Origin: Coxiella sp. RIFCSPHIGHO2_12_FULL_42_15
GTDB lineage: Bacteria; Pseudomonadota; Gammaproteobacteria; Coxiellales; Coxiellaceae
DNA length: 64,000 bases
Assembly: GCA_001797285.1 (NCBI GenBank)
Contig: MGOZ01000018.1
Span: forward strand, 33,965 to 97,964
Direction: 5' to 3'
Every line of letters starts with the position of its first letter. The first letter of the stretch is position 1. Positions 1 through 6,000 of this stretch are shown here, piece after piece. Made by a program: the position numbers.

Positions 1-3000
1 GGCCAAATCATTAAGGCTTACATTTAAATTCAAGTTTTCAACATTTAATTCAGCCAATTGGCGATCGATTGCGTCTAGGAAAATTGGCTTAATGGAATGG
101 TTAACAGAGTTGGATATTTCATTCCACAGAGCTTGAGTGGTAAATATAAATTTTGCAGATGTTTCTGCAATGATAGTTGACAGTCTATCAACAGGATAAT
201 GCGTATCAAGAGGAACATACGCAGCACCCGATTTTTGAATACCCATAAATGCTACTATCGTTAACATGGACTTCCCCATGAAAACAATAATGAGCTGATC
301 CGTTATTACAGTTTGTGCATACTGATCATTATATAAACTTAGCACATAGCGTGCCAACTGATTGCTTTTTTGATTTAACTGTCGATAATTCATGAAATTG
401 TCATGACAATACAAAGAGAGGCTTTCGGGCGTTTTTTCTACCTGCTCTTCAAAGGCTTGGAATAGAGTTTTATTAATAATTTTCATATTTTATTTTTACT
501 TATTTAAGTTGACAGGTTCATTAGATTGAGCAGATGAATATTCATCAAATGCTCTTCTCATTGTTAAATGCCCCAAAAGGCCACATTTTTCAATAAATTT
601 AATAACATTTCTTGCTACTGGATTAATTAAAAAAAGATTTTTATGATATTCAACATACGTATCGTGCAATATTTTCTCAACACTCCTCTCCGACAACCCT
701 AGCGCTTGTAGAATTTTTCGATCATATTCTTTTTGATCCTCAAACTTCAAATAATTTTCTATAAATATTGGTACGACAGGCGCAACTTCTGCTTTCACGC
801 ATTCGCTGATAGCCTCCCAATAAAACTCTAATACTTTTCCGAAAAATATCGCGTGTCGCCCTTCATCTTTAAGATGATCGCTAGTTACTTGGCTGAACTC
901 ATTGTTGATATCCGGACTTCGCATCAACTGTCCTAGATCTTGGGTAATTGAATTTTCAGCAATACAAACCGCAATTAACTCTAGTGCTTCTTTAGCTAAA
1001 GCAGATAGCGAATTATCAACTTGCGCTATAGCAGTCGATAAGCCAGTTCGCGTTCTTGCCTCAATTGGATCTATCTGCGTCAGATTTTTTAGCTGCATCA
1101 TGTAATCGCGCGCCACATAGGCATGATAGGATTCATCAACAATAATCGTTAACGAATCTAGTTGCATTTTTTCTGGAAATAAAATATGAAAATCATTATT
1201 CGCAATTTTTGTTGTGATGTGATTAACGACAAGCGTTTCAATCAACGCAATGTTGGCCATAAATTTGTATGCTGTTTGAACCAAAATATACTGTATTGCA
1301 GCGCTCCCAAGTTCCTGAATTAAAGGGTGGGCGCAGATAGGCTGCTTCACAATCGGAAAAAGATCATGACCTGGGCTTTGCAAAATCACTCGAGATTTTG
1401 TTCTAACAGAAGCCTGAGTTTCCCAAGCAACTTGATGGCTTTCATATGATGTCATACAGTTTGCTCATTTCTTGTGGTTAAACAATATCGCTCTAGCCAA
1501 TCAACTTTTTCACATACCCCTTTTTTCTGACTTAAATTAGCAATTTCTTTTAAATAGTTAAAAACATCCGTTGCAGAAATATTTTTTAAAAAATGCAATT
1601 TCGTAATGATGCCAATCACGTCATAAAAATTACTCAAATCGATGAGGCTGGCCAGATGGTATATTCCATTTAAAGTCCCCGTTGAAATATTTTCTCTTTC
1701 AATGGGTTGTGTTGTAAAATTTATTTCTTGATTATGCGATGTAAAAATCTGTTCTATTGGAATGTTTTCTGAAAAATCTAAAATAAGATGGAGTCGGTCA
1801 ATATCGGCCAAACAGGCGGCACTGTGAATTAAACTGGCATCCAAATACCAAACTTCACCTTTCTTAAGATTATATACCTGGTTTTCTTCCGAATTATAAC
1901 AAGCATCGCTGGTTTTCAACGGAATATGAATTCGTAAAAAACCCTGCTTAAGTTCCAAATAATCTCTATGCGGAATGACCACACTATTGCTGCCTAAAAT
2001 AACTAACCGTGCATATTTAAGATATTGCAAATTAAAATTATTTTTTATCATTGAATTGAGATAAAGCAATTGCTTGCCTAAATGTGTTTGTTGCGCTTGA
2101 CCTTGATAATCTTTAATTCGCACATCGTTATCCACCCCTGATAGATTCCAAATCGCGCAACTTTTCCATTCCCCACAAATAAATTCCTTATAGCCTTTGT
2201 TATTAAACGGATGTTTGAATATCGTATTAAGTTCGCCACTTAAGCTACAATCATCTAGAGTAATTTCACCTAACAACCTAGAAGGCATGACTGCATTCCT
2301 TTGTTAAGGCATATAGAATTCCATCAAAAAAATTAACCCAAAGAATCCACATTTCTTTTGCTGAATCGACTACAATTTTTTTTTCCTGATTGCTTAAATC
2401 ACTAGTCAATGCTGTATCGACACTATCAGTATGATCAGGTTCTTGTTGGATATGGATATTTACCCATTCCAAATTTTTCTTTCCCGAACACCTACTAACA
2501 GCGCTGCCAATCGCAGAAACCATAGCTAAATCTGCTGCTTCTGTACCAAATATATAACCCAAACTGTTTAGATAATTTTTTTCAGTTGCTTGCTGATATC
2601 CCATAATTAATTGTTTTGTTTGCGGCAAAGCATCTGTATCAATATATAGTGATCGTTGAAATCCTGCTTCTTCCATCGTTTTTTCATAAATAAACTCGTG
2701 CGCTCGCTCTGGTTGACCCTCTCCCAACTCTTGCCACAAAATTTTAGAAATTGCTGTTTGCATTTCTAGGTTGGGTAACACAGCAATCAATTTGCCAAGA
2801 AATTTTGGGAAATAATGCAATGGGTGATACCATTGCGAAAGCACCACGACAAGTTGATCAAATGACAGCAATTGACTCCGCATCTGAATTAGTAGGTTGT
2901 GTGTGATTAAAGCTTTTCGTGTAGAATTATGCTGAAGTTCATGCATGATGTTCAATTTATCGTCCTCTTTATACTCTTCATTGACTAATGTGCTACTAGA

Positions 3001-6000
3001 AAGCATATCCATCACAAAATCGCACTATCCCGATACTTTTCATGATTTGAAAATCCAGTGCGTTAAATATCGGAGCACCTAATGATCTAATTGTGGGTTT
3101 CAATGGTCAATATGTTAACATTTTGGTTTAAAAATGACATAGGAGATTTGCTATTTAGCATGTAAGATAATGCTTATAACATAAATGCACATATGTGTAA
3201 TCTAGCTCCAATCCCAGGACGCCACGTTGATGGAGCAAAATACTCTAACAATGAGGCATCCGCAAGATCGTGGTGGTATCATTTTTTTATTTTATTCCCA
3301 GCACCAAGGACAACCCATCACATATCCGCTATTTGCAATGGATTCTGGTAGTGGTCTTGTTTGCTGACAACCTTCGCAAAAAGCCATATCGTCATAATCA
3401 GGCGGCACAATCCCTTGTCGCCGCTGTTTCGTGTCTTTGAGTGCTGAGATAAATGCAGTAAACATTTCAAAATCTGCAATCAATTCACCCCAATCTTCTT
3501 CAGCGGCTGTTTCGACTTCGGCAATGCTCATATCATATTGCCTGCATATCAGAATTCGCCGAATTTCCAGTTTGTTTTGTTGAATGAGATTCAGCATTTC
3601 ATTGTCACGGAGTGAAGCCAGTCGCTGAATATATAATTTATCGGGGCGGATGAAAATTTCCACGCCTTGGTTGTGAAGATTTTCTATTATTTTCTCTGCT
3701 TTCATATCGCAATTACCTCCATATCGGTATTCTTAATGCGTCTTGCTTTAAACCCACCTTCTAAGGAGTAAGGTTCACTGAGTGATTCCTCATCGTATTG
3801 GTGTGCCGGTTTTCTGATTTTCTTGTCACTCTTGTCACGATTTTCATTAATCCCTTGATTTAAAGAGTGTTTATCAGTGACAAGCATTATTTTTTCTTTG
3901 TCACTCGTCTTGTCACCATGAAAATCATTATTATTCAGCAGATTAGATGAATTGGTGACATGAGTGACAACAGTGACATCATTTTCAGAAAAATTTTCCC
4001 AGGAAATCTCTATGGGTCGCTCAGTATTCTTGCGCGGCTGTTTGTGGATCACAATTCCTTTTTGAGTGAACTGTGTTTCCAAACGAGAGATGCTTCTTCC
4101 TAGAGATCTGACCTCCTTGGGCCATAGACCCGTTCTTTTAGTAGCTTCCGTGATCCCCTCAACACGATTCATTTGATTTAATAGTTCAGTCGCTGTGTAA
4201 ACGGCTTTTTTAAAGCCCCTCATCGATTGCTGAGCAATCAGTTGAAAAATGGCGAAAGCCACAGGATCTTCCATTAAATTATCCGCAGAATTTTCCTGTA
4301 AATTTCTCTGATAAGCCTGTATAAAATCACCAGGGTGAAATTCAGTAGAATCATATTCTGCTGCTATCACCCACTTAGCAAAATCTGCCATTCTGGGTAA
4401 TGAATTTGTTTTGACGGAGTCGAAATTTTTTAAAGCACTGACCACAGAATCACATAGGCCGCCTAAAATAAAAGGCAGATCATTTTCAAATGCAGAAAAT
4501 ATTTCTGTTTCTGTGCGACGCGCTTTATCACTCACGGATTGCAGCTTTACAGTCATCGTTCTTTCCAGCAAATCTCCACGATGAATATTATTGCTTATGC
4601 CATTAATGAGCATCGGTCTCGCCAGTTTATAAACTACTTCATCGGCATTGGTGTAAAGCTGACGAAAACTAATGGAGCTCCCTGATGCCAAACGGCATAA
4701 ATGACCACTCAACTCATTATCAATGTAACTATTGTTGTCAAAGCATAAGAGATGGTGACCATTAGCGTAAGCGATGAGATCGCGCTCATCTTTGGGCGTG
4801 CAGGTAGATTCTCCTTCGTTGGGATCAATGATTCTTTTCAGAATTTTCGTCGCGCTGCTTTTTCCAGAGCCCTGTGTTCCATACAGTAATAACAGCGGAT
4901 AAGGAGCGTTGGGCCGAAAGCATCCAAGTAACCAGCCCCAAATAAGTACTTTATTTTCTTCAGCCACATTGAGATATTTCCAAAGCGGTTGAACGCCTTT
5001 CCCCGCTAAAGGTCTTGGTAGCACTTCTGCATACCGACTTCGTAAAAAATGAATGGGGGCATCATGGATAATACGCCATCCTTCTGCGGTGATTTCAACA
5101 ACCTCACCCCTTTCATTCGCGAGATCAATATAAATGATTTCGTGATTACCAGAAATACGCCGAAAAACGGGCTTCTTTTCCCCGTGAAATTTAGCCTTGG
5201 CTTTAAGTGTATTGAGCGCCTCTTGCAGGCTATTATCTCTAACCCCTTTTCCAGTGAGCGCAAAATAATATTGAGTGAGATAAATATCAAAATCGTTACT
5301 CCCTAAACGATAGACCAATTTTTGTTTTTCATTATCAATAGCGGCGTAGCATTCGCCATTTTCATCGTGAAATAATTCAAAAAGGCTTCCTATTTCAATC
5401 AATAAAGTGGAAGCAGATTTTGCTTTATCCCCTTCAAAAATAGTGATCATTTTTAATTTATCGAGCAACGTTACTTTATATCGATCGGTCATTGGTCGTT
5501 ACCTCCGATGTTGATTTGACAAGATGGGATTGAAACCACTGATCCGTTTCAGTGATAGGATAAAGAACTCGACCCGCAAGTTTGACATAAGCGGGCCCGT
5601 CTCCCGCCCAACGTGAGCGTTGAAACCAGCTTTTGCTAAGTCCGTATCGTTCAGAGGCTGTTTTTTCGTTAATGAGCAAGGTGTTTGTCACGAAGTGTCT
5701 CCTTTTGGTGGGATTAAATGAATGGTTGAATTGCGTGTGATATTTTTAGAAATGGGTGAGATTTTTTATAAAAGCGTTATAAAGTTATGGTCAGAAAGCC
5801 TTGCTATTTTAAATCGCAAAAATGTTTTGAAAAAAATGTTATTGCCGCTCTTCTTTGGATGAATTGTCTGTTTTATTTAATTCTGAAGACTGACAAAAAA
5901 AGAGATGGGTTTTACACCCACTATGAAATACTTTGAAAGAAGTATAATTATTTTTTAAGGTTTGTCAAGAATTATTTTCCGTATAATTTATTTTCGAATG

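Follow-up and report, generated by a model that had tools for sequence, protein, structure and literature searches.

A candidate nonribosomal peptide synthetase operon for an N-hydroxylated, azetidine-containing histidine dipeptide on an integrase-bearing island of a Coxiella metagenome-assembled genome

We analyzed a 64,000-nucleotide stretch of contig MGOZ01000018.1 (positions 33,965 to 97,964; assembly GCA_001797285.1), hereafter the window, from the metagenome-assembled genome (MAG) Coxiella sp. RIFCSPHIGHO2_12_FULL_42_15. At its left end the window contains the 5' part of a nonribosomal peptide synthetase (NRPS) operon, whose six genes are translationally coupled. We favor the hypothesis that this operon makes, by a six-enzyme route, a small histidine dipeptide that bears an N-hydroxy group, a thio-imidazole and an azetidine, that is, N-hydroxyhistidine joined to azetidine-2-carboxylate (AZE) or its 3-hydroxy derivative. 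The cluster is an orphan, a new combination in which each enzyme is of a known kind. A first-pass annotation of the window, made from the sequence alone, had judged that the genes do not match a described pathway, and we likewise found no description of this gene combination in the literature.

The window holds four genes of the operon on its minus strand (Table 1), which encode a heme-oxygenase-like diiron oxygenase (HDO), an Fe(II)/2-oxoglutarate (2OG) hydroxylase, an AurF-like diiron protein and the start of the NRPS. Open reading frame (ORF) calls and translation returned the four packed ORFs of the first-pass annotation with the same coordinates and junctions, namely an 11-nt overlap at 2278-2288, a 4-nt overlap at 1452-1455 and a 9-nt gap at 487-495. 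The families that it had proposed (PF14518, PF05118, PF11583 and PF00501) all score above their gathering thresholds, the metal-ligand motifs that it quoted are conserved columns in homologue alignments, the ligands align with the named families, and the locus is not one for cofactor salvage. A look-up of contigs encoding a protein identical to the AurF-like protein led to metagenome contig L001, which is the reverse complement of window positions 1-11455 with zero mismatches. Because the two are identical over 11,455 nt, L001 is a valid leftward extension of the window. It adds the full NRPS, a 262-aa protein with a methyltransferase fold and a 452-aa protein with DinB and FGE-sulfatase domains. 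The operon of about 10.5 kb thus reads HDO, 2OG hydroxylase, AurF-like protein, NRPS, AZE synthase-like protein and sulfoxide synthase-like protein, and on L001 its six genes overlap or lie at most 9 nt apart; by coordinates it corresponds to about MGOZ01000018.1:26,443-36,979, minus strand. By exact-sequence look-up all six map to a 100-kb contig of the MAG, where most are annotated as hypothetical. The proposal that three metallo-oxygenases in one operon feed an NRPS is therefore borne out by the NRPS found left of the window; the earlier picture is nonetheless reshaped, because the full NRPS, the AZE synthase and the sulfoxide synthase lie outside the window.

That the starter amino acid receives an N-O bond is well supported by sequence, because the AurF-like protein is homologous to HamC and its gene is syntenic with an adenylation (A) domain. 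Both HamC and PvfB use a diiron site to N-hydroxylate valine at its alpha-amine while it is held on the thiolation (T) domain of HamD or PvfC (PMC11659414; PMC10194917; PMC12522199), HamC adding 16 Da to Val-S-T (PMC12522199; PMC11659414). The AurF-like protein matches PF11583 with 55 bits, above the gathering score, and its ligands E73, E108, H111, E167, H194, E198 and H201, invariant in 25 homologues including HamC, form a seven-ligand site equivalent to AurF E101, E136, H139, E196, H223, E227 and H230. Its match to AurF in the PDB reaches only 24.5 bits (E 2e-4), and it scores 23.6 bits against NF045603 of NCBIfam, where the cut-off for AurF equivalence is 620. HamC on chromosome 2 of Burkholderia cenocepacia, found by tblastn against plasmid and chromid records, is 32.6% identical over 95% of the length (E 1e-50/1e-59, 187 bits), and Pfam matches identify the locus as the ham cluster, with DUF3050 HamA and Cupin_2 HamB just upstream and an NRPS downstream. 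An alignment-based scan of species-representative genomes recovered 49 relatives, whereas a single-sequence scan found none; among the 46 loci with enough downstream sequence, 42 have an A domain that starts within 2 kb on the same strand. Here the gene is followed, after the 9-nt gap, by an NRPS that opens with A-T. The nearest clade is small, with 24 protein clusters among 5.8 billion, and the relatives include proteins of Legionella, Francisella, Rickettsiales and a 'Candidatus Megaera' plasmid. We place the protein in the HamC/PvfB clade, the N-oxygenases of NRPS-tethered amino acids. The AurF/CmlI-type assignment of the first-pass annotation thus holds for the metal site and for the predicted N-oxygenation but not for function, since the HamC/PvfB clade acts on carrier-tethered alpha-amines; and of the amino-acid-derived metabolite that it foresaw, N-oxygenated or N-N-bonded, the N-O part stands and N-N chemistry at this locus is not supported.

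Pairs of a HamC-type N-oxygenase and an NRPS, often with a Gly-specific second module, also occur in other intracellular or host-associated lineages: Legionella quateirensis, L. dresdenensis and L. londiniensis (L025, L032 and L052), Rickettsiales (L029, L063 and L014) and Francisella noatunensis (L065), with one pair on a plasmid of 'Candidatus Megaera polyxenophila'. On plasmid2 of Fischerella sp. NIES-4106 (L015:16760-17905) a HamC-like gene and an NRPS precede genes for a histidine decarboxylase and a tryptophan halogenase-like protein, another undescribed variant.

The A domains point to the two building blocks. The truncated gene in the window matches PF00501 with 64 bits, above the gathering score, and the full protein on L001 has 1958 aa with the Pfam architecture A1-T1-C-A2-T2-TE, where C is a condensation and TE a thioesterase domain; the core motifs HHIIHDG, LGGHSL and GWSSG are present. 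Stachelhaus codes were extracted by a procedure that recovers the canonical Gly, Val, Pro, Asp and Phe codes. The A1 codes of three related clusters, DSTPIGEVWK (L001), DTTLIGEIWK and DSSLVAEIWK, resemble the His code DSALIAEVWK. The A2 code on L001, DVCFLTLIYK, is Pro-like in that D235, V236 and F278 are common with Pro codes. The form DVCFLTLI(Y/F)K appears only in clusters with an AzeJ-like gene, those on L001 and L010; in the cluster on L009 the A2 domain crosses a frameshift and reads DLIVLTLIFK. Sister clusters that lack the AzeJ-like, hydroxylase and HDO genes carry a Gly code in A2. Neither A-domain code resembles those for Arg, Orn or Lys.

Two enzymes would supply the imino acid. The 262-aa protein has its best PDB matches in the AZE synthases VioH (1e-16) and AzeJ (3e-15). 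Y18, D85, F134, N139, R172, Y175 and Y176 of AzeJ, whose catalytic or binding roles are known from mutagenesis or structure (PMC11794875), are all kept in the homologues on L001, L009 and L010, and the gene product, OGO93525.1, is listed among AzeJ homologues in the supplementary survey of Klaubert et al. 2025 (PMC11794875). We therefore predict an AzeJ/VioH-type synthase that converts S-adenosylmethionine (SAM) to AZE and methylthioadenosine. An ovothiol- or EgtD-type methyltransferase was considered for this protein and rejected, as OvoA 8KHQ is absent at E<=1 and the best PDB matches are AZE synthases.

The hydroxylase scores 63 bits against PF05118, above the gathering score, and 40 bits against PF05373; with 121.7 bits against TIGR04531 it does not reach the subfamily threshold of 300. 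At E<=1 its only PDB matches are L-proline cis-4-hydroxylase 4P7W (E 5e-58, about 50% identity) and proline 3-hydroxylase 1E5R (7e-33), and SznF is absent. Its triad H107-x-D109...H155 and R165 align with the iron and 2OG ligands of 4P7W. The protein that the first-pass annotation read as a cupin in an Asp/Asn-beta-hydroxylase-like context thus retains the HxD...H triad and the PF05118 assignment, but its sequence identifies it more specifically as a 2OG-dependent hydroxylase of free amino acids, of the proline cis-4-hydroxylase type. Because of the 4P7W match, the retained 2OG-binding Arg165 and the absence of SznF from the PDB matches, we do not regard it as a rearranging enzyme of the SznF type. 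Proline cis-3- and cis-4-hydroxylases turn L-AZE into cis-3-hydroxy-AZE (PMC6958525).

The HDO matches PF14518 with 69.2 bits (gathering cut-off 28.9), and its diiron ligands E96, H106, E159, H188, E192 and H195 are invariant across 29 homologues and align with those of BesC. Its AlphaFold model is all-helical, with a heme-oxygenase-like (HO-like) fold and a pLDDT of 92.7, and in Foldseek has template-modeling (TM) scores of 0.72-0.77 to CADD, BesC and UndA (query-normalized maxima 0.77 for CADD and 0.72 for BesC). Profile comparison gives E-values of 5e-11 for BesC, 1e-5 to 1e-8 for p-aminobenzoate (pABA) synthases and CADD (8e-8 for a pABA synthase) and 0.44 for SznF, which is not among the top 50 Foldseek matches. 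Homologues begin near residue 20-24; the first 20-23 codons are absent from all of them and residues 1-20 have low pLDDT, and the start is probably ATG 3012 or ATG 2946, not GTG 3015. The family comprises more than 600 proteins at 45-55% identity that consistently lie beside NRPS genes. A Pro code of the DVQF type is found in 16 of the 23 HDO-family loci with any recognizable A domain in the metagenome scan, and stand-alone A-T didomains adjoining an HDO carry Pro codes in Vibrio jasicida and on one other contig. The NRPS or NRPS-polyketide synthase (PKS) clusters of the family mostly lack an AurF-like gene. We infer that the HDO family tailors proline-type imino acids. A HamA orthologue was also considered for the HDO and rejected, with no tblastn match and an hhalign probability of 3%.

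Proteins of this HDO family (about 225 aa) are widespread, mostly in soil and freshwater metagenomes, Acidobacteria and V. jasicida, within NRPS or NRPS-PKS clusters (L070-L149, e.g. L089:9977-10654; L005:8612-11386; L006:5513-10678).

The last gene encodes the 452-aa protein, which has DinB and FGE-like domains, exceeds the cut-off of TIGR04344, the OvoA N-terminal domain (527 bits, cut-off 400), and matches EgtB-IV (3e-131) and OvoA (1e-99). The OvoA-type C-terminal methyltransferase domain is absent. Its substrate-binding motif reads L-W-F, in contrast to N-W-F in EgtB-IV and Y/F-A-F in OvoA (motifs as defined in PMC11030361). L-W-F is shared by 83 of the 118 nearest homologues, whereas cyanobacterial EgtB-IV-type enzymes have N-W-F, and the L-W-F sulfoxide synthases are a large uncharacterized group. 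In three of three unrelated contexts (L150:5001-7680, L151:5001-7307 and L152:5001-7428) an L-W-F synthase gene is followed by one for an ATP-grasp amino-acid ligase of 318-327 aa; these ligases, 44-54% identical among themselves, are similar to cyanophycin synthetase and GshAB. The pair looks like a conserved two-gene module. This pairing hints that the substrate of the sulfoxide synthase is a peptide-linked or N-modified histidine.

The full gene set occurs in only three sources, all metagenomic, namely the MAG of the window, another gammaproteobacterial MAG (L009/L021) and metagenome contig L010; no cultured species of the genome collection carries it. The HDO, proline-hydroxylase-like and AzeJ-like genes stand together in all three full clusters, and the other N-oxygenase/NRPS loci have none of them. 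L010 preserves the order of the NRPS, AzeJ-like and sulfoxide synthase genes although identity is only 33-52%.

From the observed homology and synteny we infer the substrates and products of the following route. The AzeJ/VioH-like enzyme would cyclize SAM to AZE, as its conserved catalytic residues suggest, and the hydroxylase, at about 50% identity to the proline cis-4-hydroxylase, would hydroxylate the imino acid (AZE to cis-3-hydroxy-AZE, or Pro). Module 1 is predicted from its specificity code to load L-His on T1, and the HamC-like enzyme, given its clade and its invariant gene adjacency, would N-hydroxylate the alpha-amine tethered there. Module 2 would load the AZE-type imino acid, the C domain would join the dipeptide, and the TE domain would release it, possibly by cyclization. 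The sulfoxide synthase would thiolate the imidazole ring, probably on peptide-bound or N-modified His, and the HDO would most likely oxidize the imino-acid unit. The product is plausibly a metal-binding or redox-active metabolite.

Several observations weigh against this route. The A1 code agrees with the His code at only seven of ten positions, the A2 code corresponds to none of the documented codes, and a literature search gave no reference code for AZE-activating A domains. The hydroxylase lies below the TIGR04531 cut-off, and its substrate could be Pro instead of AZE. At the position of the GxxxG adenine motif, the AZE synthase-like proteins have AxxxA in L001 and L009 and GxxxS in L010. 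The role given to the HDO rests on neighborhood statistics of homologues that are only 45-55% identical. The sulfoxide synthase is missing from L009, one of the three related clusters, and may be accessory, and the cluster has no gene for a C-S lyase. Finally, there are only three instances of the cluster, every one of them metagenomic.

The alternative that survives best follows the ham and pvf systems, in that the HDO and the HamC-like enzyme would act together on the T1-tethered amino acid to give a dihydroxylamine, nitroso compound or oxime, possibly an N-N diazeniumdiolate. The order HO-like, beta-barrel, AurF-like and NRPS does mirror hamABCD, the HO-like HamA oxidizes HamC-treated Val-S-T by a further 16 Da (PMC12522199), and HamA 9VWB is among the Foldseek neighbors of the HDO (TM 0.62). 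However, the HDO is not a homologue of the DUF3050 proteins HamA and PvfA and keeps a six-ligand diiron site, whereas HamA is a mono-iron, 2OG-dependent enzyme (PMC12522199); the HDO family is mostly found in clusters that lack an AurF-like gene and is linked to Pro modules; and no HamE/PvfD homologue is present, the N-N step being unresolved even in ham (PMC11659414; PMC12522199). We consider this alternative rather unlikely.

A second alternative, which we judge quite improbable, regards the operon as a mosaic of independent island modules: an AZE toxin, with a synthase and a self-protecting hydroxylase; a thiohistidine antioxidant made by the sulfoxide synthase; and a pvf-like signaling NRPS. 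The absence of the sulfoxide synthase from L009, the ATP-grasp ligase that normally accompanies its subfamily elsewhere and the frequent mobility of AzeJ homologues fit such a mosaic, but the six genes are translationally coupled in one operon, the gene order of L010 is conserved despite low identity, and the unusual A2 code appears only with the AzeJ-like gene.

The first-pass annotation had offered a pathway of the SznF or graminine type, in which an HDO and a mono-iron cupin build an N-nitroso or diazeniumdiolate group on an amino acid derived from Arg, Orn or Lys before it enters the NRPS. Such chemistry is established for SznF (PMC11177257), and here too an HDO with complete diiron ligands adjoins a beta-barrel iron enzyme. 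The proposal nevertheless fails and must be thought very improbable, as the supposed cupin is a 2OG proline hydroxylase with a 2-His-1-Asp plus Arg site, the HDO profile gives SznF an E-value of 0.44 and neither A-domain code resembles one for Arg, Orn or Lys. A pathway in which a CADD-like HDO makes pABA and the AurF-like enzyme oxidizes it to p-nitrobenzoate to prime the NRPS is effectively excluded: AurF does act on pABA, and the HDO has pABA synthases and CADD among its nearest matches in both sequence and structure, but its match to the CADD family TIGR04305 is weak (42 bits) and far below the cut-off of 200, the AurF-like protein is far closer to HamC than to AurF in bit score, A1 keeps Asp235 in an amino-acid-type code and the HDO family goes with Pro modules.

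Table 1. Features of the operon and the adjoining island in the window (window coordinates).
Feature	Position	Strand	Evidence
HDO gene, first of the operon	2278..3015	minus	PF14518, six diiron ligands
Fe(II)/2OG amino-acid hydroxylase, proline cis-4-hydroxylase type (predicted)	1452..2288	minus	PF05118 + PF05373, PDB 4P7W
Diiron N-oxygenase (predicted), HamC/PvfB clade within the AurF family	496..1455	minus	PF11583, HamC match
NRPS, first 162 codons of 1958 aa, cut by the window edge	1..486	minus	PF00501
Intergenic, probable promoter region of the operon	3016..3291	minus	weak sigma-70-like consensus matches only
Mobile-element backbone adjoining the cluster (137-aa, 596-aa and 71-aa proteins, AbiEii/AbiEi-like pair, integrase)	3292..9158	minus	ORFs, Pfam, PHROGs
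Tyrosine integrase	7923-9158	minus	phrog_1 1e-50, PF00589/PF13356

The operon lies at the cargo end of an integrase-bearing island. GC content is 35.5% in the cluster, 40% in the mobile-element backbone and 43% in the rest of the window, which is chromosomal. The backbone, in which one protein matches PF08843 (AbiEii), is context and stands outside the biosynthetic pathway. Upstream of the operon, matches to the sigma-70 consensus on the minus strand (3118-3090 and 3110-3082) are weak, and no terminator-like site was found in the scanned interval 2900-3400. In a search for the island borders, the window and contigs L001-L003 yielded neither a tRNA nor a tmRNA gene, and no convincing att direct repeats were found. 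PHROGs recognized only the integrase among the six island proteins, and the 'satellite-like' label of the earlier reading was not confirmed. Just past the last gene of the operon, left of the window, is an element of about 170 nt (L001:18990-19163) with perfect 14-nt inverted repeats, GTAACTATTCAGCC and GGCTGAATAGTTAC. Contigs L001 and L002 agree fully up to this element and part ways directly behind it. The window contains no copy of the element, which could be a repeat resembling miniature inverted-repeat transposable elements, an island border or an assembly branch point. Directly past the integrase, window positions 9371-11279 hold a gene with a Fic domain and another tyrosine recombinase (10254-11279), and the presence of two recombinases suggests tandem or nested integrative elements. 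Elsewhere, window positions 43651-45090 encode a 479-aa protein whose C-terminal part resembles sphingomyelin phosphodiesterase, with a score of 106 bits against TIGR03395 that stays below the cut-off. The protein could be an effector aimed at eukaryotes, which fits a host-associated lifestyle.

More tentatively, the operon may define a previously unseen class of metabolites of intracellular or protist-associated bacteria, the N-hydroxylated histidyl-(3-hydroxy)azetidine thio-imidazole dipeptides, in which the HDO clade would tailor proline-type imino acids and the L-W-F clade would thiolate peptide-bound or N-modified His, not free His or hercynine. Such a dipeptide could serve as a metallophore or redox signal. 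If the favored route is right, one short assembly line would unite tethered N-hydroxylation, a SAM-derived azetidine, imino-acid hydroxylation and oxidative imidazole C-S formation, which have so far been studied separately. It would also give cis-3-hydroxy-AZE a natural role, offer a tractable entry to the large uncharacterized HDO family linked to proline modules, and hint at what the large L-W-F branch among EgtB/OvoA-like enzymes does. Coxiellaceae-type bacteria, usually held to be poor in secondary metabolism, can gain such pathways on integrative islands. Should the model fail, what is left is an ordinary orphan NRPS cluster, and the claim of SznF-type N-N chemistry is to be dropped.

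Among known systems, the ham (fragin/valdiazen), pvf and mgo clusters of Burkholderia and Pseudomonas share with this operon a HamC/PvfB-type gene directly ahead of an NRPS whose first domains are A-T, HO-like and beta-barrel genes that precede the N-oxygenase, and N-hydroxylation of a tethered alpha-amine, here predicted, as the key step. Their NRPS, however, is A-T-R with an A1 domain for Val or Leu, whereas that of the operon is A-T-C-A-T-TE with a His-like A1. The HO-like protein is the DUF3050 protein HamA in ham and a diiron PF14518 enzyme here, and the beta-barrel protein is the Cupin_2 protein HamB there and a 2OG proline hydroxylase here. HamE/PvfD has no counterpart in the operon, which has genes for an AZE synthase and a sulfoxide synthase in addition. 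The HDO resembles BesC, CADD/pABA synthase and UndA in fold, six-ligand diiron site and size (about 225-245 aa), but is at most 22% identical to any of them, and its family is tied instead to Pro-activating NRPS modules. The L-proline cis-4-hydroxylase of Mesorhizobium/Sinorhizobium (4P7W) and the cis-3-hydroxylase (1E5R), of a class that acts on free L-Pro, L-pipecolate and L-AZE, have iron and 2OG ligands identical to those of the window hydroxylase; unlike theirs, its gene sits inside an NRPS operon with an AZE synthase-like gene. AzeJ (azetidomonamides) and VioH (vioprolides) belong, like the 262-aa protein, to a methyltransferase-like fold family; their validated catalytic residues are all kept here, their genes are likewise NRPS-linked, and a location on mobile elements has been noted for many homologues. 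In contrast to them, the 262-aa protein is only about 25-30% identical, has AxxxA for GxxxG and lacks a B12 radical-SAM partner, and no AZE pathway has been described in which the synthase is accompanied by a proline-type hydroxylase and an HDO. The 452-aa protein, finally, has the DinB and FGE-like architecture of the ergothioneine enzyme EgtB-IV, to which it is 45-50% identical, and of the ovothiol enzyme OvoA, but differs in its L-W-F motif, in the lack of the OvoA methyltransferase domain and of a nearby EgtD, and in the position of its gene within an NRPS operon.

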